IMG/VR virus record: IMGVR_UViG_644736359_000007
From: a virus
Taxonomy: Duplodnaviria; Heunggongvirae; Uroviricota; Caudoviricetes
Strand: one strand, 5' to 3'
DNA length: 24,156 nucleotides
Both the position numbers and the translations under genes were made by a program. The notes under the pieces were generated by a model, which made no database searches, was not told where the DNA came from, and worked only from the letters and a program-made list of their open reading frames with translations. The first letter of the stretch is position 1. Each line of letters opens with the position of its first letter. This document shows, piece by piece, positions 2,727-17,623 of the stretch.

Positions 2727-3917
2727 TTAATTGCTGTTAACCGAGGTAACCAGACTTGCCAGGTATCTGGAAGTAATACGCTGGCGCAGGGTCAGGTTTT
2801 CGAGAGGAGGCACCGGGGTATAGTCGTAGTCGATATACAGTTTTCCGGCCTTGAGGGTTTCCGCATCATTGGCTTCTTCACTGAACCAGCATGTGCCATC
2901 CACGATATAACCGTTGTTTTTCAGTTCGCGGAATTTGGCATTAATGCCATCAATGATGTCACGAATCAGCGTTGCGGTAATTGGCTTATCAATAGCCCAC
3001 ATGTGCGCCTCGGCCATCGTGTCGGCCAGTACCTGCGCGGTGCGGGTGTAGCTTTCAAAGAGGAACAGCGGGTCATCAGAGCAGGTACGGTTACCCCAGA
3101 AGCGGAAGCCGTCGCGGCGAATCAGCGTAGTGATGCCTGACTCGTTAAGCAGGTCAGCATCAGTACCGGACTTCTGCAAATCCCAGAATACAGAGGCGCT
3201 GATGCCGGTAACACCATTTACCCCGACGTTGGACAGCGTTTTATGCCAGCCCTGCTCCTGGTCGATTTTGGCACGCAGCCCCAGCGCACGGGCGGTGGCA
3301 TACGCGGTGGCAGTGGTACTGGTAACCGTATCCCATGCGAGGAAATCCGGCCAGATGACCATCAGCTCACGCTGGCTGAAATTCTGACGGTAGGCTTTTG
3401 CCTCGGAAATGGTTTTACAGCCCCATGCGCTGATATACCCGAATGCATTCAGTTCCTGGCATACCGATGCCAGTGCGACGGCAACCTCTTTGGTGTCCAG
3501 CCCCGGCACACCAAGAATGCGCGGTTTAACGCCGGTAACCGACTCAGCCCCCATCAGGGCTTTCAGTCCGGTGTACTGACCGTTTTCGTCAGTGGTGCCG
3601 ATGATATTGGAAACGGTCTGCGCGAGTTTCGTTTCCTCGTCGTCGCCGGTGCCGTCTTCCACACGCACGACAACAGTGACCGGTTTTGACTGGTCGGCGA
3701 TAGCCTGCAACGACGCCGCCAGCGTGCCTTTTTTACCGGCCTTTGCAATTGCGCTCTGTACATTGGTAATCAGCACCGGTTTATTGACGGGGAAGGTTTC
3801 CGCATCCGCATCGCTGGCCGTGCAGACCATGCCGACAATGGCCGTGGATACGGTGGAAATGACGCGGGTGCCGTCGTTAATCTCCAGCACCTGCACGCCG
3901 TGATGATAGTCACTCAT
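2727..3917 (-). CDS. FI: Contractile tail sheath protein FI
   Basis: 396-aa product MSDYHHGVQVLEINDGTRVISTVSTAIVGMV... matches P2 gpFI from memory; start at ATG 3917 with GGAG RBS (8-nt spacer). The track ORF extends 50 codons further upstream without support. Confidence 0.9.
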   Translation of the reverse strand: MSDYHHGVQVLEINDGTRVISTVSTAIVGMVCTASDADAETFPVNKPVLITNVQSAIAKAGKKGTLAASLQAIADQSKPVTVVVRVEDGTGDDEETKLAQTVSNIIGTTDENGQYTGLKALMGAESVTGVKPRILGVPGLDTKEVAVALASVCQELNAFGYISAWGCKTISEAKAYRQNFSQRELMVIWPDFLAWDTVTSTTATAYATARALGLRAKIDQEQGWHKTLSNVGVNGVTGISASVFWDLQKSGTDADLLNESGITTLIRRDGFRFWGNRTCSDDPLFLFESYTRTAQVLADTMAEAHMWAIDKPITATLIRDIIDGINAKFRELKNNGYIVDGTCWFSEEANDAETLKAGKLYIDYDYTPVPPLENLTLRQRITSRYLASLVTSVNSN

Positions 3918-4387
3918 CCGTTTAACTCCGTGGTTAATGGGTGCAACTATTTTCTGTTGTGCGAAGCATGAGACGCTATTTGACCTGGCTGGGCAGTGGA
4001 TGAAACAACAGATAAAGAAAAAGTGGGCAACTTGCCCGCCTCTATTTATTGCGGTATACCCAGCCATTCAGGATTTGTTGCTACTCATAATTACCTGCAA
4101 AGAAACAAAGAAAAGATGAAAATACAAGCTGTCTGGTACAAAGAAATCCATCAGACTTCCAACACCCCATACATGTGCCCCCACCACGGTATGCTGCTCC
4201 GCTTCCCTTTGCGGATATTTTCTATCCATCGATTTTCAGCCAGGATATGCACGTGCGCGATGAAGAATGTCACACTACTATTGCCTTGTAAGCCCAGTTC
4301 CCGGTAAGAATAGCAACCAGCATCTGCGCTGCTACAGCACAAAGCGAGTGTATATTTGGGGGGAATATCCTTCATAAACTGTTCGAC

Positions 4388-4413
4388 GAAACCACGCTGT
4401 GGTTTCTCTTGTT
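4388..4413 (+). terminator. Hairpin plus T-rich tail (terminator-like) on + strand
   Basis: GAAACCAC-GCT-GTGGTTTC followed by TCTTGTT; no convincing upstream + strand gene. Confidence 0.35.
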
Positions 4414-4530
4414 ATCAAACCGAGTGGCATTATCACTAGTTTTACTAAATTACCAACTTCACTGTGAATGATATGCATGATAGAATCAGAAAATTAAATT
4501 ATACAGATCTTAATCAATTCCGCGTTTTAT

Positions 4531-4556
4531 GCCCGTTGCTTCCACGGGCTTTTTTT
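4531..4556 (+). terminator. Intrinsic terminator on + strand in ORF-free AT-rich segment
   Basis: GCCCGT-TGCTTCC-ACGGGC followed by TTTTTTT. Confidence 0.5.
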
Positions 4557-4651
4557 AAAAAATCACCTAAAATAAATAATTATATTCACTTTTATTCTAA
4601 TACAGAATAGAATATGAAATCGTCAATTTGTACCATTAATTTTCAAATCTT

Positions 4652-4681
4652 CCCCGCCTTCGAGAGAATGCGGGGCTTTTT
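4652..4681 (+). terminator. Intrinsic terminator-like hairpin on + strand
   Basis: CCCCGC ... GCGGGG stem with 12-nt loop followed by CTTTTT. Confidence 0.4.
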
Positions 4682-4829
4682 ACATGAGTACAACTTCACA
4701 TTAACTATTTTTATACTTATAATTTGCTTTGCTTAAAAATGTTCAAAATGTACGCCAACATATTTAATTATGCTGATTTTATCACCAACAAAACTATCAC
4801 CATGCAAACAATCCCTCGTGTTAGTTATA

Positions 4830-4845
4830 CTGCAATGCATTGCAG
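4830..4845. repeat. Perfect 16-bp palindrome CTGCAATGCATTGCAG, about 115 bp upstream of the leader ORF ATG
   Basis: Exact dyad symmetry seen directly in sequence; plausible binding site for a dimeric regulator. Confidence 0.9.
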
Positions 4846-4959
4846 CATGATGTGCTGATGACTTCATTAAATCATGTCACAATGTTCAGATATAATGCTT
4901 CATGTTATGAGATAGCATTCTGAATATTCATAAACATTATTAACGTTAGAGGTTGCATA

Positions 4960-5146
<187 letters not shown>

Positions 5147-5175
<29 letters not shown>

Positions 5176-6265
5176 TTGCCCTTATTATACTATAAAAGGC
5201 AACACTAAAAAAGAAAACATTTCATCTTCTGCTGTTTTAACAACAGCCCTGCATACTTCTCTTCTAAAAATCACAACGGTAATTAATGAAATTAATTCTA
5301 TTTATCCCTTTGATGTCTCAGTTGTTATTCCGGTTCACAACCGAGAAACCCTTATTCTCGAATGCATTAAATCTTTAAACAATCAGACTATAGATAAAAA
5401 TTGTTTTGAAGTTATTTTCATTGATGACTGTTCCACTGACAGGAGCATTGCCGCCATTGAATATAACATTTCGAGAGAAATAAATTATCGTATTATCCGT
5501 AGAGCAGTTGGTTCAGGGAATGCATCAGCGCCGCGAAATGAGGGAATAAAATCCGCAAAAGGTCGCTATGTGTTTTTCTTAGACTCTGATGATTCCATTC
5601 ACTCTGACTTACTGTCCGATGGTATTCAGATGGCTTATAAAAACAATAGTGACATTGTATATTTCAAGCAGGTTTCCTCTACAGGGAGAGGGGTTCCTGT
5701 ACGCCCATTTAAGGCAGACACGAATAAAGCAGATATTATAAAAAACCATCTTTTTAGATCATTAAAAATCTTCAAGTTCTTTAAAAGAGAGTTGCTAATC
5801 AATAACAACATCTTATTTAACCCATCAATTTCAGTCTATGAGGATATGCTTTTTTCTTGCCAGAGCCTAACTGTAGCTAATACGATATCTATACTGGCAA
5901 GAAAGGGCTACTACTCTCTGAATCGCCATGAAGAACCACATCTATCTAAAACATCTTTCTCCATTAAACAAAGAGCCTTGGTATTACAAACAGGTTTGAT
6001 TTATATCTTATCAAGCAATAAAAATGAAGCAGAAATAGTAAAAATGTTTAATGCATGGCTGGTTATTTGCGTTGAGCACTTGGCATCCATATTATCCAAA
6101 AAAAGTTTAACAACTAATGAGAAGTCTCACGTTTTTAACTTGATACATAAATCACTCTTACCATATACAGGGCTTGTAAATGAGTCCCAAATATATCCCG
6201 CACAAAGAGAGCTTGTCAGTTGCTTAATCTGTGGAGATTATTCTTCTTTTTGCGAAAAAATATAA
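5147..6265 (+). CDS. Family-2 (GT-A fold) glycosyltransferase
   Basis: Conserved GT2 motifs VSVVIPVHN, DDCSTD, APRNEG and FLDSDD in the first ~150 aa. There is no in-frame ATG: candidate starts are GTG 5147 or GTG 5153 (AGGTG RBS-like at 5143-5147), or ATG 4960 after a one-unit change in the AGCC tract. AT-rich, atypical for the prophage backbone. Confidence 0.75.
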
Positions 6266-6304
6266 AAACACTTAACTACAGATACTCCTAACTTTGTATC
6301 TGAC

Positions 6305-6334
6305 GCCCCTCACCCTAAATTAAGGGTGAGGGGC
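6305..6334. repeat. GC-rich inverted repeat (12-bp stem GCCCCTCACCCT / AGGGTGAGGGGC) followed by an A-tract
   Basis: Strong hairpin 40 nt downstream of the GT2 stop; flanked by A-run on the 3' side of the + strand, so not a canonical terminator for either strand. Confidence 0.5.
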
Positions 6335-6476
6335 AAAAAAAATAATTATTTGATGTTATATTTATATGCCATCACATCTTTTAACTCCAGTTGTTACGGG
6401 GAGGACAGTGACTCGTATCAACTAAAGTTTGATCTGTAGATAACACTATTTTAAGCAGATACTCATTAAGGCTTGT

Positions 6477-9335
6477 TTATTCTGAAGTCTCCAACTTCAT
6501 CAAACGACGATTTAAGTCAACAAAGCGTTCCATTAACAAATCCACCTGGCTGACAACAGCACGTAGACACCACCAGAGAAGCTCCTCTTTCCGGAAGCGA
6601 TAACGGCTTCCTGCTTCGGTTGCAGGGCGAACAAGAACCCTTTCCGCCTGTCGGGTAAGCACACGAGTTGTCCCGCTCAACAGCTCCCCTTCATCCGAAT
6701 AAATCGCTGGCTGAACCGGAATATCTTCATACTCTTCCGGTATATCTTCGTACTGTGCCTCCTCCGCTTCCCACGAATCCAGACAAAATGCGCTGTATTT
6801 CCGCCAGTCCAGACCGTGTTTCTCCATCACCGCTATCGCGGCCTGGACTGTCGGCCCGGCGTGCAGACGCGCGTCCTCGCCCTCCTCCTCAATTCTCTGT
6901 AACCAGCGCCACACGCCCGGAAGCCGTGCTATTTCTGCAAATGCCGCGTTTTCGGCTGCCGTCGCATCGCGCGGTGTATCCTTTAACGTCGCATCCGACA
7001 CAACGGTCGGCGAGTTGCAGAGATACACGCTCCGGAACGCTTTGTTGGGCGCACCCAGGTCGCTGGTATTGTTAACCGATGGCCGGAATGCACCGTTAAT
7101 ATCTGTATCCATCTGCATGAATGCAGTGCCGTCACTACGGGCTGCAATTACATAAGCGTCAGCAGAATCGTCATAAATACCCAGATTCCCGGCTGTTGAT
7201 ACCTGGAAAGCTCCCGCCTTCAGCGTGGTGCTGATGGCCATGCGCTTCTGGGTTTCGTCATCCGATTTAATATTCACGCCCTGCAGGTATGCCACATTCC
7301 AGCGATTTGGCGATGACCCCAGATTCATTGCCTTGTCCTGGTCGGGATGAAATGCCGGCGAGACCGGACTCAATAATACAGACCAGGTCTCACTGCCATC
7401 GGTACAATAAAGCCTTGTGCGCCCCGCCGACTGAGTATCGTTCATTGAGTAAAGGTTAATCCCGCCACCGCTCAACAAATCCACGTCAGCGCGTATTTCC
7501 AGACAATCGTGCACGGTGTTCAGTCGGTGTTTCCACTGAACGAAGCGGCCTGTGTATTCTCCGGTTCGGAACGCATCCCCGTACAAACGAAAAACAGCAG
7601 CAGAAGTGTCTGTATCCGGAGCCTCCTTTCTGACCTCAAATAACGGGCGATGCGAGCGCAGATTCTGCTCATAGGCTGCCACCTGGAAGTCTTCATTGGG
7701 TGACAGGGCAATATTTACAGCATTGGGACTCAGAAAAAGGCTAGCATGGCTGTCAGGAAACGCCACGCCGGAGTCCACCAGATAGCCTGTGCCGTCGTAA
7801 GCCTCCACGGAAACCACAGCTTTGCTGCGTTTTGTCGCCACGCCACACGTATAAGACTTCGTGGCATCATATTTCGTTGCAGCCGCCGTTCCATATGCTG
7901 TAGGCGTCCAGTAAGATGGATTCACCGGGGAACGGCCAGAAAAATTTGTTGCACGTGCTGCAAAGTATGCCCCCTCAAAAGAAACCACATCTGCTGTCTG
8001 ACACCAGAAATCCATATCGAGCAGATACAGTTTTCCGTTATGAAGAGCCAGCCCTTCGGCTTCCTGCAAAACGGGATACCCCAGCTCTGCATTCCCCAGC
8101 ATTTTCTGGCGGCCATACCTGGCACGAACGCCATCCACATTGAACTGTCTGACAACTTCGCCCGTTGACAGGTTATATACAACAATGCGGTGAGTCAGAA
8201 ATACGCCTGTATAACCGTAATAAGCAAACAGATAATGACCATCGCTGGCCATCCCCTGAAATGCCTGCGACACCATTGACTGGGTGGACAGATAAATCCG
8301 GTGTTTAAACGTCAGAGAAGCGCGATCGAAAACATAAACTGTGCGGCGGTCATCCCTGTTGTAATGAAGATGGACGGCTTCATTACTTGACTGAACAATC
8401 AACAGGCTTCCGTCTACCGACAATGCCACCGTTATAATTTCATCCCCGGTAAAAAAGTCAGAGGTGAAAATCTCCGTACGGGTGACATCTGTCAGACTGG
8501 TGTCAGCCCCATTCCAGTTGATGATATTCACACCCTTGCCGTCAGCGGTCGGGGTATACAGCATCACGCGACCGTCTTCACATACAGCCCCGATACTCTG
8601 GTGACCAATATCAGCGAAAACGGGAGAAAACGAAATGACCGTCGGGTTTTCGTTTTCTCCGTCAGGGTTAAATGTCGTTTCAACAATCCTTACGCCACCC
8701 GATACAGGCTGATGCAGAAACATTCTGGTTCCCTGCGGCGTATCACAGATACAGAACCCCTGACTCATATTATCCGCACCGTCAAAAATCCCGGCGTAGT
8801 CAATATCGTGGACAACTTTATGCTGAAGAACCACATCATCAATGACAGTACGATGAAAACTGGATATGGCTTTATCGACGTAATCCTGCGTCGCCATCAC
8901 CGTGCTGGCATCAATACTCAGCTCAACAGACGCCACGTTACTGACAATAATAACCATGCGGCAGGTCTGCGCACGCCCGGAGCCTTCAGCCAGTTCAGGC
9001 TTATAGCTTTCTACCATGTTAGCGACCGCAATCAGTGTTCCGGCATCGTCATACAGACCAAGTTCACGCATCCAGAAGCCGCCCACTTCTGGCGGTACAA
9101 CCAGTTCAGCCACGATATAGTTTTTATTCTTGTTATCCACGCTGACTTTATTCAGGGCGTGACGCCAGACCTCATGCACCAGTTTCGTCTGACCAGCATC
9201 CGGCACCGGCAATTTGCCATTACCGTCACCCACGGCCATTGCAGACAGGGTTACTTTTTTCCCGCCGGGGACAGTGGCGGCTGCCAGCTTTGCGGCTCCG
9301 GCAGTAGTGATAACGGTTTTAAATTTCGTGCTCAT
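6477..9335 (-). CDS. H: Tail fibre protein (P2 gpH-like N-terminal anchor domain with a divergent, longer distal region)
   Basis: N-terminal ~150 aa (MSTKFKTVITTAGAAKLAAAT...WRHALNK...GGFWMRELGLYDDAGTLIAVANM...) matches P2 gpH from memory; 952 aa versus 669 aa in P2; positioned directly after gene I as in P2. Confidence 0.8.
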   Translation of the reverse strand: MSTKFKTVITTAGAAKLAAATVPGGKKVTLSAMAVGDGNGKLPVPDAGQTKLVHEVWRHALNKVSVDNKNKNYIVAELVVPPEVGGFWMRELGLYDDAGTLIAVANMVESYKPELAEGSGRAQTCRMVIIVSNVASVELSIDASTVMATQDYVDKAISSFHRTVIDDVVLQHKVVHDIDYAGIFDGADNMSQGFCICDTPQGTRMFLHQPVSGGVRIVETTFNPDGENENPTVISFSPVFADIGHQSIGAVCEDGRVMLYTPTADGKGVNIINWNGADTSLTDVTRTEIFTSDFFTGDEIITVALSVDGSLLIVQSSNEAVHLHYNRDDRRTVYVFDRASLTFKHRIYLSTQSMVSQAFQGMASDGHYLFAYYGYTGVFLTHRIVVYNLSTGEVVRQFNVDGVRARYGRQKMLGNAELGYPVLQEAEGLALHNGKLYLLDMDFWCQTADVVSFEGAYFAARATNFSGRSPVNPSYWTPTAYGTAAATKYDATKSYTCGVATKRSKAVVSVEAYDGTGYLVDSGVAFPDSHASLFLSPNAVNIALSPNEDFQVAAYEQNLRSHRPLFEVRKEAPDTDTSAAVFRLYGDAFRTGEYTGRFVQWKHRLNTVHDCLEIRADVDLLSGGGINLYSMNDTQSAGRTRLYCTDGSETWSVLLSPVSPAFHPDQDKAMNLGSSPNRWNVAYLQGVNIKSDDETQKRMAISTTLKAGAFQVSTAGNLGIYDDSADAYVIAARSDGTAFMQMDTDINGAFRPSVNNTSDLGAPNKAFRSVYLCNSPTVVSDATLKDTPRDATAAENAAFAEIARLPGVWRWLQRIEEEGEDARLHAGPTVQAAIAVMEKHGLDWRKYSAFCLDSWEAEEAQYEDIPEEYEDIPVQPAIYSDEGELLSGTTRVLTRQAERVLVRPATEAGSRYRFRKEELLWWCLRAVVSQVDLLMERFVDLNRRLMKLETSE

Positions 9336-9345
9336 TGTTTCTCAC

Positions 9346-9876
9346 TTATCCGGGATAAACAGTAATAACATCACCATCACAGACCACACCGCCTGTATAC
9401 AGATAGCCGGGAATGTCCTGGATAATGTTCAGACCGATAAGGTGGCGACTTGCGGGTTTGGCATCGGCAATCAGCCGTTCCATTTCCAGATACATCTCCT
9501 CCGTGATGCCGCTTTCCAGTACGCCGATATCAAGGCGGAAGGTTCCGGGCGGGTCGTTTGTCTCCCACCATTCCTTTACGTTAATTAGATAGCCTAGCGG
9601 CTCCACCACACGCCGGATTGCACCTATAGTGCCTTTATGACAGTGGATGAAATACGCATCGCGGATAACGGCGCGTTTTGTCGCTTCCGGCCACTTTTCA
9701 TCCCATCTGTCGACCGAAAACGCCCACGCCAGCCACGGCAGCAGATTTGCCGGGCAGGTGTCCGGGTTCCACAGCTCACGAATACTGACCGGTGTTTTTT
9801 CAATTTCCGCACAGGCTTTTGCGGCGGCGACCTCAAGCGGTGATGAGCCGGTCGGCAGCAGTCGCGAATCACTCAT
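9346..9876 (-). CDS. I: Baseplate assembly protein I
   Basis: 176-aa product with P2 gpI length and sequence character; gene order J-I-H conserved. Confidence 0.85.
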   Translation of the reverse strand: MSDSRLLPTGSSPLEVAAAKACAEIEKTPVSIRELWNPDTCPANLLPWLAWAFSVDRWDEKWPEATKRAVIRDAYFIHCHKGTIGAIRRVVEPLGYLINVKEWWETNDPPGTFRLDIGVLESGITEEMYLEMERLIADAKPASRHLIGLNIIQDIPGYLYTGGVVCDGDVITVYPG

Positions 9877-12635: not shown

Positions 12636-12672
12636 TAAACATTGAGCGACCAGCATGGCCGCTCAATGTTTA
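12636..12672. repeat. Perfect 13-bp inverted repeat (TAAACATTGAGCG ... CGCTCAATGTTTA) with 11-nt loop between convergent coding regions
   Basis: Seen directly in sequence; lies between the membrane-protein stop (12630) and the stop of the minus-strand fragment (12692); possible bidirectional terminator or rearrangement scar. Confidence 0.5.
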
Positions 12673-12694
12673 ATTGCGCATCAGCCTCTGCCTG

Positions 12695-12955
12695 GATAAA
12701 ACTAACGCTCAAGGTGAGCCAGGATAATCTCTTCAATCATCTGCACATCCTCACCGGTAAAGCCGAGCAGAGGACGCGCCGGATAATCAATTTTCTTACC
12801 GTCTTTCCGGGTTTCTTCCGACAGACCGAACTGATGCACACTGGCGATTTTCGGCGACTTTCCCAGCAGGATTTCAGCCGCTTTGTGCTGGATTTTCTGG
12901 TGTTCGGTAATGCGTTTCTGGAAAAGCGTTACAGCACCACCGGTAAGGTCATCAG
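12695..12955 (-). pseudogene. Orphan 3' fragment (87 codons) of an unidentified gene on the minus strand
   Basis: Minus-strand frame translates to GFQSDDLTGGAVTLFQKRITEHQKIQHKAAEILLGKSPKIASVHQFGLSEETRKDGKKIDYPARPLLGFTGEDVQMIEEIILAHLER-stop using preferred E. coli codons (CTG, CCG, GGT, CGT), whereas the overlapping + strand track ORF uses rare codons (AGG, CGG, ATA, CGA); no start codon; bounded upstream by an in-frame stop at the junction with the Q fragment. Confidence 0.5.
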
Positions 12956-12958
12956 ACT

Positions 12959-13616
12959 GGAAACCTCACCGGCAAAATATACCCGCCGTGGCGTGGAGGA
13001 GGATGTTTACTGGTGGGTGCCGTCCTTCAACGAACCGACAGCCTTCGCGCCCGGTTCCGTGTTTCACCTGCTGGAGCCCGATATTAATCAGGAGCTGTAC
13101 GGCCTGCCGGAATATCTCAGCGCCCTTAACTCTGCCTGGCTGAATGAGTCGGCCACGCTGTTCCGCCGCAAGTATTACGAAAACGGCGCACATGCCGGAT
13201 ACATCATGTACGTCACTGATGCCGTGCAGGATCGCAACGATATCGAAATGCTTCGCGAAAACATGGTGAAGTCGAAAGGCCGCAACAACTTTAAAAACCT
13301 GTTTCTCTATGCCCCACAGGGAAAAGCCGACGGCATTAAAATTATCCCGCTCAGTGAAGTGGCGACGAAGGACGATTTTTTTAATATCAAAAAAGCCAGT
13401 GCCGCAGACCTGCTGGACGCGCACCGCATCCCCTTTCAGTTGATGGGCGGCAAGCCGGAGAACGTCGGGTCGCTGGGTGATATTGAGAAAGTGGCAAAGG
13501 TCTTTGTCCGCAATGAGCTTATCCCGTTACAGGACAGGATCCGTGAGATAAACGGCTGGCTCGGTCAGGAGGTCATCCGCTTTAAAAACTACTCACTGGA
13601 CACTGACAACGGCTGA
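12959..13616 (+). pseudogene. Q: 3' fragment of portal (capsid vertex) protein gene Q
   Basis: C-terminal ~219 codons (…GLPEYLSALNSAWLNESATLFRRKYYENGAHAGYIMYV…RFKNYSLDTDNG) with good codon usage, ending next to cos as P2 Q does; the 5' ~125 codons and upstream gene P are absent. The 324-aa track ORF begins at a TTG and its first ~105 codons are non-coding read-through. Confidence 0.65.
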
Positions 13617-13931: not shown

Positions 13932-15902
13932 TTAAAGGTCATCAATTAAACCTAAAGGCAAACCATCCTCACCAACCGAGCTATAATGAGCGATAATATT
14001 CGAAAGTTCACCAGTAGAAAACGAATTAGGCAAATCATTATCAACTAATATAATCTGGCACGGAACATTTTTTCTTTCTGCTTTTTGAACTGTATTCAAT
14101 AGTTGCTCATAAATATTTTGATACTTCATCGGGTCTGACATCCCCTCAAGGTCATCCTCGACTGCAAGAGTTTCTTTTGAGTATTTTTCCTTGGTCTGTT
14201 TCCCTAAATATTTACCAACCGTATCAAATATCAAAAGTAAAGGATGGTTAACATTATGGTCTATTGCATAATCAAGAATAGACAAAAGATACCCAATAGA
14301 AGAAATAGTTCTCAAACCTCCGGACGTTATTTTAAAATATTCCTTTCCTCTTATAACAGGGGTGTAATATCTTTCAGAGATTTTTATCCCCGTTCTGTTT
14401 TTGATATTAATACCCTTCAAATACTGACTAAATCTATCACCTAAACCTTGTAAAATGCCTTCCATACTAGGTGCGTTTTTCTTTAACGCATCCAAGCGTT
14501 CAGTTAATGTTTCAATATCTTTTATCAGTACCTGATGCTTTTCAAGCAGTTCCTCTTGCTGGTTTCTAACCTTCAAATCTTTTACTAACTGCTCCCTAAC
14601 CTTCTCGTTTTTTGATATCTCTTTAATATAAAAATCTCTCTGAGTCAAGAATGGTGTAATCATTGACTGGCTTTCTTCGTCAATTAACTCTCTCAACTCG
14701 TCAAGTTGTTCATCTAATTCTTTTTTATAACCAGATTCTTTTTTTAATTTAAATGACATTTCTGAGATCATGTCATTAATATTTCGTCTACGTCGACTAA
14801 GTGAATTCAACTCTTCATTAAGATCTTTTTCTGATGAAATTTCAAATGGAAAATCGGAATCATCTATTTTAATGTGGCTATCACAGATCGGACAGGAAAA
14901 TACTTCCTTATCCAATACACCAATGCGAGAATTTGCTGTTTTAATCGCTTTGAGTTTTTCAATATCATTATCATAGTCATTTTTTAACCGCGAATATTTA
15001 TCAATCTTATCCTCAAGCGTGCTAATATTTAATATGCACTCCTTGTATTTAAGCGAAATAAAATTGTGGGCATCTTTCAATTCTGTATACTGCATGGAAT
15101 CCGCTTTCATATTTTTATCGAGAGCAGACAAACCTGCAACAAGTTCTTCTAAAATAAGATCTATCCTATTAATCTCATCATCAATTGATTCAATTGTTTC
15201 ATAGTCTGTATCGCGAAGAAATTCAGATATTATCTGATACTTCTTATTTAGTTCCGTTACTAAACTACTTTTTGCAGATATTTCACCTTGGAGTCTGGCG
15301 ATGCTTTCATCCAACACATTGAACATGTATTTAAAAACTTCTTTCGTAAATGCGTAACGGGACCAATCCTCCAATCGTAAGAATGATTTACTACCAATAT
15401 CATCCTGACTTACATAAACAAATTTATATATATTTCTAAAGCTTAACCTGCGCATCTGTGAATGTGCTTTAGAAGGAGACACCTTAATTTCAATTTTTGG
15501 AAAATTAAGACTATCAAGTAAAAACTCCGAAAAAACGCCATCAACATTTGATAAGGGGCTATAATTAGGAGCGTATTTTTTCGGAAAGTGTTTATGTAAA
15601 TCATCAAACTTACAACGATAAACTTCTATTGATTTTTTATGATCATAGATATCTCTTACGATTGTGAATACAGTATCATTGATCACTACTTCAAGAGCAG
15701 CATAGTTTACTGATGTTTTTATTTCATCTGCTAAATCTATAGAACTAGCACCTAAAAGATAATTAATAAACTCCAGAATACTTGACTTACCTGTGTCAGA
15801 GTCTCCGTAGATAACATTGAGACCTTTATAAAAAGTAGTGACGTAGTTTTTACGAACGCCAACAAGAATCAAACTATTGATATTGAGATATGATTTCATC
15901 AT
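13932..15902 (-). CDS. Rad50/SbcC/SMC-like ABC ATPase with central coiled coil and CPxC zinc-hook motif (candidate LmuB-like)
   Basis: 656 aa; Walker A GDSDTGKSS (about 15781-15807); long heptad-like charged region; CPICD near the middle (about 14878-14892); ABC signature ITSGG (about 14311-14322); Walker B HPLLLIFD (about 14221-14250). AAGGAG RBS; start ATG 15902 or 15899; ATGA overlap with the upstream gene stop. Confidence 0.7.
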   Translation of the reverse strand: MMKSYLNINSLILVGVRKNYVTTFYKGLNVIYGDSDTGKSSILEFINYLLGASSIDLADEIKTSVNYAALEVVINDTVFTIVRDIYDHKKSIEVYRCKFDDLHKHFPKKYAPNYSPLSNVDGVFSEFLLDSLNFPKIEIKVSPSKAHSQMRRLSFRNIYKFVYVSQDDIGSKSFLRLEDWSRYAFTKEVFKYMFNVLDESIARLQGEISAKSSLVTELNKKYQIISEFLRDTDYETIESIDDEINRIDLILEELVAGLSALDKNMKADSMQYTELKDAHNFISLKYKECILNISTLEDKIDKYSRLKNDYDNDIEKLKAIKTANSRIGVLDKEVFSCPICDSHIKIDDSDFPFEISSEKDLNEELNSLSRRRRNINDMISEMSFKLKKESGYKKELDEQLDELRELIDEESQSMITPFLTQRDFYIKEISKNEKVREQLVKDLKVRNQQEELLEKHQVLIKDIETLTERLDALKKNAPSMEGILQGLGDRFSQYLKGINIKNRTGIKISERYYTPVIRGKEYFKITSGGLRTISSIGYLLSILDYAIDHNVNHPLLLIFDTVGKYLGKQTKEKYSKETLAVEDDLEGMSDPMKYQNIYEQLLNTVQKAERKNVPCQIILVDNDLPNSFSTGELSNIIAHYSSVGEDGLPLGLIDDL

Positions 15903-16264
15903 TTCTCCTTGAAGACTTTGTTTATAACAGAGTTTAACTTAGAGGTAGGCAATGCTTGTAGCGGTAACAATGCTTCGGCTAGTCGTTTTATTTCTTTAAA
16001 ATATCCATCAGTCAATGAGCTAGCAAATTCCTTACCTTTTTCAGATAAAAATAATTTAACACTCTCATTATTTTTTTTCTCAGCTGAGAGCAATCCCCGC
16101 AATGACATAATTTTTATAAGATATTTCACTTTGGAATTGTCGAATAAGATATCTACATTTGATGAAAAACTCTTTATTGTATAAGTTAACTGGGACTCGA
16201 CACAAGCAGGCTTTTTCCCCGAAACTGTAAGAGCACAATCAATTTTTGATGGATTTTTTATCAC
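15899..16264 (-). CDS. Small hypothetical protein encoded between the hydrolase and the ATPase (candidate LmuC-like accessory)
   Basis: 121-codon ORF (GTG start at 16264; alternative ATG at 16108 would give 70 aa); stop overlaps the ATPase start (ATGA), indicating translational coupling; AT-rich. Confidence 0.5.
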   Translation of the reverse strand: MIKNPSKIDCALTVSGKKPACVESQLTYTIKSFSSNVDILFDNSKVKYLIKIMSLRGLLSAEKKNNESVKLFLSEKGKEFASSLTDGYFKEIKRLAEALLPLQALPTSKLNSVINKVFKEK

Positions 16265-16399
16265 AGATACATAAAAATTTGTATTTTATTAATATCTAAT
16301 GACAACACTCCTTTTTTACTATGAGATAATATAGATATAGCAATGGCAAGCATAGCAAAATTCAAACTATACTCTTCATCAAGAGGTATATACGGCAAG

Positions 16400-17623
16400 T
16401 TATTTTTCTTCATGATTACCTCGCCGTAATTGCTCCAAAGTTTCTACGCTGGTTTCAGATGACCAGACAATATCCCTGTCATTTTTGTTAGCCAGTTGAT
16501 GCAACATTCCTTTCTTATGTATCGTTTCCAAACTTTTTATAAGAGAATCTAACGACGACTTATCCTCCTGGGTTATTCGTCTATGAACAGCAGCAATAAA
16601 TTTATCTGGGGAAATTGAATTTGCAATGTATTGCTCATACTCTTCCTGGTAAATCTCCCTTATTTTAGAATACAAATGACCAAGTTGTTTTCTATCGTAA
16701 TCACTCGTAAAAATATTTCTCGCAAGCTCAGCATTATAATAATATTCCTTTGCATGCAGAGCGATATCCTGATGTATATCTGCGACAATCATTTTTAAGA
16801 CGAAATACTCATTATCATATTGTTTATCATCAGAAAAACGCTCAACGCAAATCTTCTTGGGTGCTTCTAAATTTATCTGCTGAATAAATTGCTTTACCGC
16901 AACAAACACTGTAGACGAGCTATTTTCGGGCTTGCAAATTGAGCTATGCCCTTCATTAACTGCAATTGAGTTATGTCGTTCACTATCCATCGGTAATGCG
17001 CTTTTTTTATCGACTATAGTGTCATGAGATCCATAAACATATCTAGTGATAGGAAGTTTTTTGCTACAATTTATCCAGCGCCTATTCAATGTATCAGTCG
17101 CTTCACTTAACAATCCAAGATCTACTAACTGAGCATTTGAAGATACCATTGAAGTTATATTCGCTAATTTAGCACCAAAGTGAGGGACTGCTAACGAAAT
17201 GAATCCAATTATATTAGATTGTTCCTCATGCTCAACTTTTTTTAGAATTAGATTTTTTGATATTAACCCCCCCATACTATGGGCGATTATTATAATTCGA
17301 GAGTAATCACTTAGTGTTACTCTAATCTCAGTATACAATAACTCAGCTATTTCATCAGTTGGTAAATTTCTCTCTAACTTATTTTTCTTAAAGAAAATAC
17401 GAGCCAAGAATCCTGACGTTTTAGCATACGTTTGTGTGAATTTAGTAAAATAATTGAAACATGCAATATCAAATACGTTGCTAATATCTTCATCTTCTGC
17501 TAATAGTTTTGGAAATGAAATTTCTTTATTAAAGTTCCATGTTTCCAAACCACCATTTAATCCATGTACAAATAGTATCAGGCTATCTTTTTTCTCGTGG
17601 CTTATCCATTCAACCATGCTCAT
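16400..17623 (-). CDS. Alpha/beta-hydrolase (lipase/esterase-like) domain protein with a C-terminal helical domain (candidate LmuA-like effector)
   Basis: 407 aa; N-terminal LILFVHGLNGG and nucleophile-elbow IIIAHSMGGL (GXSXG-type, about 17267-17284), then candidate Asp (GSHDTIVD) and His (NEGHSSIC) in Ser-Asp-His order; C-terminal ~160 aa charged/helical; sigma70-like promoter (TTGTTT-N16-TATACA) just upstream. Confidence 0.7.
   Translation of the reverse strand: MSMVEWISHEKKDSLILFVHGLNGGLETWNFNKEISFPKLLAEDEDISNVFDIACFNYFTKFTQTYAKTSGFLARIFFKKNKLERNLPTDEIAELLYTEIRVTLSDYSRIIIIAHSMGGLISKNLILKKVEHEEQSNIIGFISLAVPHFGAKLANITSMVSSNAQLVDLGLLSEATDTLNRRWINCSKKLPITRYVYGSHDTIVDKKSALPMDSERHNSIAVNEGHSSICKPENSSSTVFVAVKQFIQQINLEAPKKICVERFSDDKQYDNEYFVLKMIVADIHQDIALHAKEYYYNAELARNIFTSDYDRKQLGHLYSKIREIYQEEYEQYIANSISPDKFIAAVHRRITQEDKSSLDSLIKSLETIHKKGMLHQLANKNDRDIVWSSETSVETLEQLRRGNHEEK

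Follow-up and report, generated by a model that had tools for sequence, protein, structure and literature searches.

A chimeric tail fibre gene with a P2 gpH-type anchor and a Peptidase_S74 domain at a G-less locus of an Escherichia coli B prophage

The tail fibre protein of phage P2, gpH, has 669 residues and is built as a fibrous shaft whose C-terminal tip depends on gpG, the product of gene G. How a fibre locus of the P2 family can be laid out without gene G is the question raised by a gene located at positions 6477-9335 (minus strand) of the stretch of DNA analysed here (24,156 nucleotides (nt); IMG/VR virus record IMGVR_UViG_644736359_000007; hereafter the window). The window corresponds to a P2-like prophage residing between yegQ (trhP) and yegR of 'wild' Escherichia coli B: a 100% match to its positions 4000-9400, one repeat tract excepted, is found in the genomes of several strains of E. 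coli B (B, ATCC 11303 and their derivatives), whose fibre protein is 100% identical and annotated generically in RefSeq as a phage tail-collar fiber domain-containing protein. The gene is an uninterrupted open reading frame (ORF), the product of which is matched over its full length (1-952/952) by PHROG 19921, 'tail spike protein'. We consider it very probable that this protein is a gpH-equivalent receptor-binding protein and a chimera of four parts, comprising an anchor, a propeller with an adjoining hairpin, a trimeric beta stalk and a Peptidase_S74 chaperone, and that gene G was dispensable and has been deleted by cassette replacement. The gene, its parts and its upstream neighbour are as follows:

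6477..9335, minus strand: complete tail-fibre/tail-spike gene, gpH equivalent, 952 codons plus stop, ATG start (ORF list and translation)
8874..9335, minus strand: P2 gpH-type baseplate-attachment (anchor) domain, residues 1-154 (PF12571 over residues 1-151, E 5e-57)
7992..8843, minus strand: five-bladed beta-propeller, presumed receptor-binding domain, residues 165-448
7776..7991, minus strand: aromatic hairpin reminiscent of CBM5/12 (VVSFEGAYFAAR...SYWTPT) plus connector, residues 449-520 (family-alignment pattern including W476 and Y495)
6999..7775, minus strand: beta-rich stalk/tip, presumably an intertwined trimer, residues 521-779 (beta strands in monomer models)
6480..6998, minus strand: Peptidase_S74 intramolecular chaperone, residues 780-952 (PF13884, E 2e-9)
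9346..9876, minus strand: gpI, baseplate partner directly upstream of the fibre gene (PF09684 Tail_P2_I, E 2e-55; annotation of the B genomes)

An initial annotation of this gene had assigned only the N-terminal ~150 residues to the gpH type and considered the rest unrelated to P2 H, and both statements hold. PF12571 does not reach beyond residue 151, and a tblastn search of the whole window with P2 gpH yields an alignment over residues 1-163 only (79% identity; other Peduovirus H proteins are ~93% identical over the same residues, the range for H proteins of the P2 family being 79-94%), with no match to a P2 H-like distal shaft or tip past residue 163. At the DNA level, the homology to P2 H ends directly after codon 154, at ...VMATQDYVD. 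A canonical P2 H distal region, which we specifically considered, was rejected on the basis of these two end points. Besides the N-terminal ~154 residues, the locus shares with the P2 H and G genes its position after V-W-J-I, an order that is canonical and confirmed by gpI, and the FI promoter region downstream. It differs in that the encoded protein has 952 residues, with a propeller, a stalk and a putatively self-cleaving S74 chaperone, and in that the gene G of P2 is represented by a 32-bp scar. With residues 1-154, the P2 gpH anchor, the trimeric protein would plug into the P2 baseplate beside gpI.

What explains the lack of a chaperone gene at a P2-family fibre locus is the C-terminal part of the protein. 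PF13884 matches residues 780-842 with 38.1 bits (gathering cut-off 22), and residues 710-868 are significantly similar to the solved C-termini of T5 pb1 (4UW8, E 9e-15), a phage tail fiber (7Y5S), the spike of the Acinetobacter phage AS12 (6EU4), 9VVR, the K1F endosialidase (3GW6) and GA-1 gp12 (3GUD), with E values ranging from 9e-15 to 2.5e-4; a family profile raises the matches to solved chaperones to 1e-27 to 1e-39. As in the S74 chaperones 3GW6, 4UW8, 7Y5S and 6EU4, a C-terminal domain with a Ser-x4-Lys dyad follows a homologous beta segment, the last ~70 residues of the stalk being homologous to the segment that precedes the chaperone in T5 pb1 (phmmer alignment from residue 710). The stretch S780-D-A-T-L-K785 (nt 6981-6998, with Ser780 at 6996-6998 and Lys785 at 6981-6983) aligns with (A/S)DARLK of T5 pb1 and 7Y5S and with SDARKK of 6EU4, that is, it occupies the position of the Ser/Lys catalytic dyad, by which those proteins cleave themselves. 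D782 and K785 are invariant in all eight close S74-bearing relatives, and Ser780 is present in seven of them (Cys in P0047); more broadly, PF13884 is matched by 14 of 35 family members. The score above the gathering threshold and the aligned dyad together support the intramolecular chaperone that had been put forward earlier as a possibility.

The beta-rich middle and the acidic, helical C-terminus described in the initial annotation are likewise seen in the AlphaFold models and in the composition of residues 781-952 (D+E 19.8% versus K+R 12.8%); the chaperone part is helical in the monomer model, with values of the predicted local distance difference test (pLDDT) of 58-88. The acidic character stems largely from an insertion of ~30 residues (about 862-892), which is extra with respect to other S74 chaperones and is missing from the relatives with a T7-type anchor. 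Two relatives, P0048 and P0049, carry another C-terminus in place of the S74 chaperone. One more, P0050, was left out of the alignments because of pervasive odd substitutions (e.g. A→V, T→I/M, P→L/F, H→Y and R→C); this sequence of 589 residues comes from a read-archive assembly, and our guess is that the reads behind it had been chemically converted or damaged.

T5 pb1 carries its chaperone in its last 133 residues, which are auto-proteolysed after folding (PMC4690869). By analogy, processing of the protein studied here would leave residues 1-779 as the mature chain and release residues 780-952 as the chaperone. Its expected role matches that of the other S74 chaperones (trimerisation, stalk templating and then auto-release; PMC4690869), cleavage being assumed here by analogy. 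The three C-terminal chaperone domains would trimerise first and template the folding of the stalk, whereupon Ser780, activated by Lys785, would cut the chain at Ser780; the cut would free the chaperone of ~173 residues and leave the mature 779-residue trimer, whose three propellers would bind a host surface glycan.

S74 domains were first described in endosialidases, and an endosialidase-type spike directed against the K1 capsule is an alternative to be considered here. PF12219 (End_tail_spike) is matched at residues 660-686 with a sub-threshold E value of 0.025, 5 of the 35 relatives match the same family, and the profile reaches the stalk ends of the endosialidases 4HIZ (5e-5) and 1V0E (0.28). 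However, the similarity is limited to the stalk and chaperone region, Pfam gives no match to the endosialidase propeller or N-terminal extension families, and 1V0E, 3GVJ and 4HIZ are absent among the 50-60 top structural matches listed, so that we find this alternative scarcely credible. An endosialidase (GH58) identity was rejected on account of the lacking propeller-family match and the best structural matches, which are five-bladed rather than six-bladed. Whereas the receptor parts of known S74-chaperone proteins are a six-bladed sialidase, a beta-helix or the pb1 tip, that of the protein in the window is a five-bladed propeller.

With its folding self-assisted, the fibre would have no need of gene G, which would thereby become dispensable. 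On the minus strand, the fibre gene is followed in order by a glycosyltransferase (GT2) island, a pseudogene of the phrog_1443 family, the scar of gene G, and a hairpin with the FI promoter and leader:

4460..6470, plus strand: low-GC cargo island inside the cassette (GC 32-38%)
4100..4362, minus strand: small membrane-protein gene of the phrog_1443 family, now a frameshifted pseudogene (two tblastn segments lying in different frames, combined E 1e-13)
4046..4077, minus strand: gene G scar, the last 32 bp including the TAA stop, right boundary of the replaced cassette (28/32 positions identical to the extreme 3' end of P2 G)
3900..4041, minus strand: terminator-like hairpin (GGGCAAGTTGCCC plus T-run) and FI promoter/leader (76% over 147 nt to P2 upstream of FI)

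The hairpin and FI promoter region start four bases past the scar, and the FI start codon lies at 3917. In Salmonella phage STYP1 the stretch corresponding to the scar and the region downstream of it are continuous with the end of an annotated tail fiber assembly gene, and the succession of G end, hairpin and FI promoter is therefore the ancestral arrangement. The left edge of the cassette is codon 154 of the fibre gene. According to the scenario we propose, a cassette at ~4078-8872 replaced the distal two-thirds of H and all of G but its last 32 bp (ten codons), and today this cassette comprises the spike module, the GT2 island and the decayed gene of a small membrane protein.

The earlier claim that no gene G follows the fibre gene is borne out: tblastn with P2 gpG returned nothing better than E=1.3 in the whole window, and Pfam detected no tail-fibre-assembly (Tfa) domain in the ten longest of 25 stop-to-stop ORFs of at least 35 residues in 4060-6480. 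A homologue of G in the interval 3937-4400 had been named as an observation that would speak against the absence of G; a trace is indeed there, but only as the 32-bp scar at 4046-4077 (minus strand), which supports cassette replacement rather than contradicting it. The frameshifted phrog_1443 copy, which is unrelated to G, lies in this interval too. The statement that the GT2 island sits in the place of G was right as far as the location between the fibre gene and FI is concerned, but the island is part of the cassette that was swapped in and lies upstream of the G scar, and it does not take the place of G functionally. The same G-less order and the same scar are found in strain MINF_1A, in an apparently complete P2-like prophage at the same site with all late genes annotated. 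No G was found next to the spike by tblastn of P2 gpG at the respective loci of MINF_1A (scar only) and of a prophage of sequence type 131 (ST131). These G-less layouts, taken together with the S74 domain, make self-chaperoned folding the most economical explanation.

The other way to account for the layout is that a separate assembly factor is needed (Tfa/G of another prophage, or the phrog_1443 protein) and that the S74 domain is only a structural tip. What could speak for it is an intact phrog_1443 gene of 94 codons located 3 nt downstream of the same spike in a prophage of an O25b ST131 strain (L008 8217-8501, minus strand), of which the window has a decayed copy, the search for G/Tfa in E. 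coli B having been confined to the window. However, the 94-residue protein reads, from its sequence, as mostly hydrophobic, it has no similarity to Tfa families (a comparison with Pfam gives no family at cut-off and PhoR, E 0.3, as the sole match), and in the window its gene is a pseudogene. Moreover, the S74 domain is kept in the eight close relatives and matched in the 14 family members mentioned above, and the orthologue in the podophage Pollock is followed by a terminator, with no chaperone gene. We hold a requirement for such a factor to be very unlikely.

Where did the distal module come from? The initial annotation had suggested swapping of the receptor-binding domain, and the distribution of the module (~165-952), which occurs at 50-98% identity on at least five other N-terminal anchors (in Mu-type, T7/SP6-type and G7C/N4-type phages), supports this suggestion. 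The most similar version (98%) belongs to a fibre with a Mu-type N-terminus and Mu-type neighbours (gp45, gp46, gp47 and gp48 upstream), falling into a cluster of 609 sequences. It is followed by the tail spike gp75 of the N4-like podophage Pollock (77% over residues 161-949), by modules on PF18668 (G7C gp66/CBA120-type) anchors (70-73%), on another myovirus-type anchor (66%) and on a second type of P2-family anchor (54%), and by modules on PF03906 (T7 gp17-type) anchors in SP6-like phages, R4596 and the ST131-specific CC1/CC2 among them (~50%). The combination of the P2 anchor and this module is absent from the records of the phage collection. Pollock gp75 and the proteins of vB_EcoP_R4596, CC1 and CC2 (SP6-like, 1027 residues) are true orthologous modules including the chaperone (77% and ~49% over residues 167-948, respectively); they differ in being carried by lytic podophages and in their anchors, which are of the G7C-gp66 type (PF18668) and the T7-gp17 type (PF03906). 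Note that CC1/CC2 infected ST131 and not other E. coli of their isolation panel, and that R4596 plaqued on 1 of 64 strains. One and the same receptor-binding cassette thus moves between temperate contractile-tailed phages (P2- and Mu-type) and lytic podophages (N4- and SP6-like) of E. coli, a circulation that is relevant to host-range prediction and to the design of chimeric phages and tailocins. In complete E. coli genomes the module is present in 86 of 5426, at 95-100% DNA identity.

The identity to Pollock gp75 (L003 5533-8370) is uneven along the protein, amounting by eye to ~70% in the propeller (161-520) and ~95% in the stalk (521-750), which suggests either that the stalk was exchanged more recently or that the receptor-binding propeller has diverged faster. 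The reach of the design is indicated by gp12 of the Bacillus phage GA-1, the second-best match in the library of viral structures (E 2e-24; 566 aligned columns at 20% identity). It has the same combination of propeller, stalk and S74 chaperone, the last being the solved 3GUD (profile match 1e-33), and differs in its phi29-type collar attachment, its Gram-positive host and its low identity. Because gp12 combines all three elements, we conclude that the propeller-stalk-S74 design is old and widespread; no functional characterisation of the GA-1 gp12 propeller was found in the literature.

The concept of a foreign spike on a contractile tail is the same as in the fusion of an R-type pyocin with an O104-specific prophage tail spike (PMC3303846). 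The pyocin fusions are laboratory constructs with beta-helix spikes, whereas the window presents a natural fusion with a propeller and its own chaperone. The engineered pyocin/spike constructs are said to use the N-terminal part of a P2-H-family fibre as the anchor. The natural fusion point after ...ATQDYVD (residue 154) could offer a ready graft site that requires no helper chaperone.

The next question concerns the part of the protein that meets the host. A fold test identified residues 165-448 as a five-bladed propeller, with platforms of phage receptor-binding proteins and other five-bladed propellers as the best structural matches. The platforms in question are those of the staphylococcal phage proteins phi11 Gp45 (5EFV), 80alpha gp61, P68 gp17 (6IAB) and NF5 gp17 (9M7X), which are 10-14% identical to the propeller of the window protein and are described as binding the N-acetylglucosamine (GlcNAc) of wall teichoic acid (PMC4901313). 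They differ from it in having a helical stem and 'tower' domains and no S74 domain, and in belonging to siphovirus or podovirus baseplates and Gram-positive hosts. An exhaustive HMMER search gave 144 clusters of relatives, mostly of 600-1000 residues and 23-35% identity, and a profile of the family finds NF5 gp17 with an E value of 0.0013 and P68 with 0.045. In the propeller profile, Q360-G..D aligns with 'MQGVA.SD' of NF5 gp17 and 'MQGIAVDG' of P68 gp17, and an E-P-E-G-L motif aligns with 'EPEGL' of NF5 gp17; furthermore, matches to PF21311, whose Pfam model represents the staphylococcal platform domain, occur in 7 of 35 relatives (best E 1e-6). Fold, profile motifs and relatives thus indicate that the propeller is remotely homologous to the staphylococcal platform, which structurally links the propeller spikes of enterobacterial phages to these receptor-binding proteins and supplies candidate pocket residues.

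Q192, H245, Q360, E425, E427 and W476 do not vary across the family. The model places all of them except W476 at, or immediately ahead of, the innermost (first) strand of blades 1, 2, 4 and 5, and because of this position they most likely line the central cavity, at a place equivalent to the proposed sugar pocket of phi11 Gp45. In the latter protein the proposed GlcNAc pocket at the propeller centre is lined by M164/Q165, T211 and M329/Q330 (PMC4901313), and the spacing from one Gln to the other is 165 residues, versus 168 in the window protein. Next to the propeller, residues 449-480 show a conserved aromatic pattern, V-x-F/Y-x-G-x-x-F/Y-A ... W-x-x-T, which to judge from the sequence is reminiscent of CBM5/12 modules; PF02839 (CBM_5_12) is matched by 2 of 35 relatives, and the chitin-binding domain of chitinase A1 gives a weak profile match to the hairpin region (E 1.3).

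Could the propeller be an enzyme rather than a binding platform? A catalytic depolymerase (a glycosidase, lyase or deacetylase) would make the protein an enzymatic spike cutting O-antigen, capsule or another exopolysaccharide, and the invariant set of E-x-E, His and Gln residues in a glycosidase-like predicted fold may leave room for catalysis. We regard this as possible but doubtful: the closest relatives by structure and motif (the receptor-binding proteins of phi11, P68 and NF5) share the QG and EPEG motifs, and the structure paper on phi11 Gp45, in which sugar binding is only modelled as a GlcNAc cavity, does not contain the word 'enzymatic' (PMC4901313). Folds of the GH43, GH62 and GH32 type are only lower-ranking propeller matches, at 5-11% identity. 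No hydrolase or lyase family of Pfam was found in the fibre protein, and no glycoside-hydrolase match in it and its 35 relatives. The papers checked on phages carrying a relative (Pollock, R4596, CC1/CC2 and UKE phages) yielded no receptor data and no halo, depolymerase or other enzymatic phenotype, and a recent survey calls the role of propeller-type 'depolymerases' in enterobacterial prophages unclear (PMC12491483).

As to the receptor recognised by a binding propeller, E. coli B has an O7 wzx/wzy cluster, and the module occurs at 99.3% identity in O25b:H4 ST131 isolates and in many other strains. Since O7 E. coli B and O25b ST131 share the module, a single O-serotype receptor is unlikely. 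We also tried to read an O-antigen specificity from the host serotype and rejected the idea, there being no simple O7 association among the strains compared, for which no full cross-table was drawn up.

The cassette holds one more element that may bear on the receptor, in the GT2 island:

5147-6265, plus strand: GT2 glycosyltransferase (PF00535, E 1.6e-28)
5114-5144: perfect (CAGC)n tract preceding GT2, between the ATG ORF 4960-5175 and the GT2 ORF

The window has 7-8 CAGC copies; another assembly of E. coli B (L001 17115-17257) has 35 of them and MINF_1A (L004 21113-21188) has 19, and the matched lengths of the tract differ even among laboratory derivatives of B. The upstream ORF (4960-5175) is not in frame with the GT2 ORF in the window, and the loss of a single repeat would fuse the two. 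The pattern resembles slipped-strand phase variation acting on a glycosyltransferase of a prophage, the alternative being an assembly error in the repeat. The GT2 island is found in 28 of 5426 E. coli genomes, and the whole stretch of GT2 plus spike in the same number; this strict linkage may reflect a functional pair, i.e. a spike and a modification of its receptor, or simply a single prophage lineage. The hypervariable tract in front of a strictly linked GT2 gene is the most intriguing of our side observations. A bolder picture, which we consider rather improbable, would make the propeller the Gram-negative counterpart of the staphylococcal GlcNAc-binding platform, recognising or cleaving a glycan that is not specific to a serotype, which would allow P2- and Mu-type prophages to cross O-types (O7, O25b), with GT2, switched by (CAGC)n, as a phase-variable partner modifying the receptor. 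If so, GT2 would give lysogens reversible protection, and the cassette would unite a spike and a seroconversion function.

Several points weigh against the reading of the gene as a self-chaperoned, glycan-binding chimera. Its steps of cleavage, trimer assembly, glycan binding and receptor identity are ones that we infer. Residues 521-779 have low pLDDT in two monomer models, which is presumably what is expected for an intertwined trimeric stalk modelled as a monomer. The cavity placement of the invariant residues is deduced from strand positions in a model, not from coordinates, and the window protein itself matches PF21311 with an E value of only 0.21, under the gathering score. The module is 99-100% identical in hosts with the O7 cluster (E. 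coli B) and with O25b (ST131). Finally, the search for G or Tfa was confined to the window and related loci, and annotation is the sole basis on which the MINF_1A prophage is taken to be complete.

Nothing here overturns current understanding. The locus exemplifies known phenomena, namely the exchange of fibre modules, S74 self-chaperoning and propeller-type receptor-binding proteins, in what is fairly ordinary phage module swapping and no new kind of system. New are two details: both recombination edges of the swap are documented, including the 32-bp scar of G, and are seldom so clear; and a spike family of coliphages is tied to the staphylococcal platform.

It remains to ask what the gene does in E. 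coli B today. The annotated gene order is yegQ, ogr, remnants of D and FII, FI, the GT2 gene, the fibre gene, I, J, W, V and, beyond V, remnants of S and Q, a defence island, early genes, int and yegR. Comparison with the apparently complete relative in MINF_1A reveals two internal deletions that make the prophage defective:

1935-2714: in-frame-looking fusion of the FII (tube) N-terminus with the D C-terminus; E, E', T and U gone together with the tube C-terminus and the D N-terminus
12642-13616: junction of what is left of S and of the portal gene Q; R, the lysis genes, X, L, M, N, O and P gone

Because the tube, tape-measure, head and lysis genes have been deleted, the spike cannot enter a virion in E. 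coli B, and the fibre gene, although intact, is unusable for that purpose. We take the BL21/REL606 lineage ('Bc' strains) to derive from a B strain that was cured of a defective P2-related prophage. This fits BL21(DE3), in which yegQ and yegR are adjacent (NC_012971.2 2064588-2066597), i.e. the site is empty and the entire prophage, including the fibre gene, is absent. Such considerations lend themselves to the view that the gene is dead cargo, a functionless leftover of a decayed prophage that merely looks intact and whose unusual features reveal nothing about how this strain lives, and we lean slightly towards this view: head, tail and lysis genes were lost by the two deletions, only a fragment of Q being left, and the empty site of BL21(DE3) implies that the element is dispensable. 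However, the ORF is uninterrupted and has 97.8-100% DNA identity to copies in apparently complete prophages, and ogr, the late activator, and the V-W-J-I-H operon are kept, so that expression upon superinfection by a P2-like phage is possible. Either way, there is no conflict with the identity proposed above for the protein as a gpH-equivalent chimera. In the searchable literature, nothing about the fibre turned up for the prophage of E. coli B or for P2 Hy dis.

Two further features of the prophage were noted in passing. A low-GC (32-36%) island at 13932-17623 (minus strand), placed between the portal-gene remnant and the replication gene A, encodes an AAA-family ATPase and two 'ABC-three component system' proteins and is presumably anti-phage cargo. 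MINF_1A has a different AAA ATPase at the same position, which we take to correspond to the place where P2 carries its old/tin cargo. The 446-residue ORF given for the sheath gene (2727-4067, minus strand) has an artefactual upstream extension, which crosses the FI promoter region and the G scar; the annotated start of FI is at 3917.

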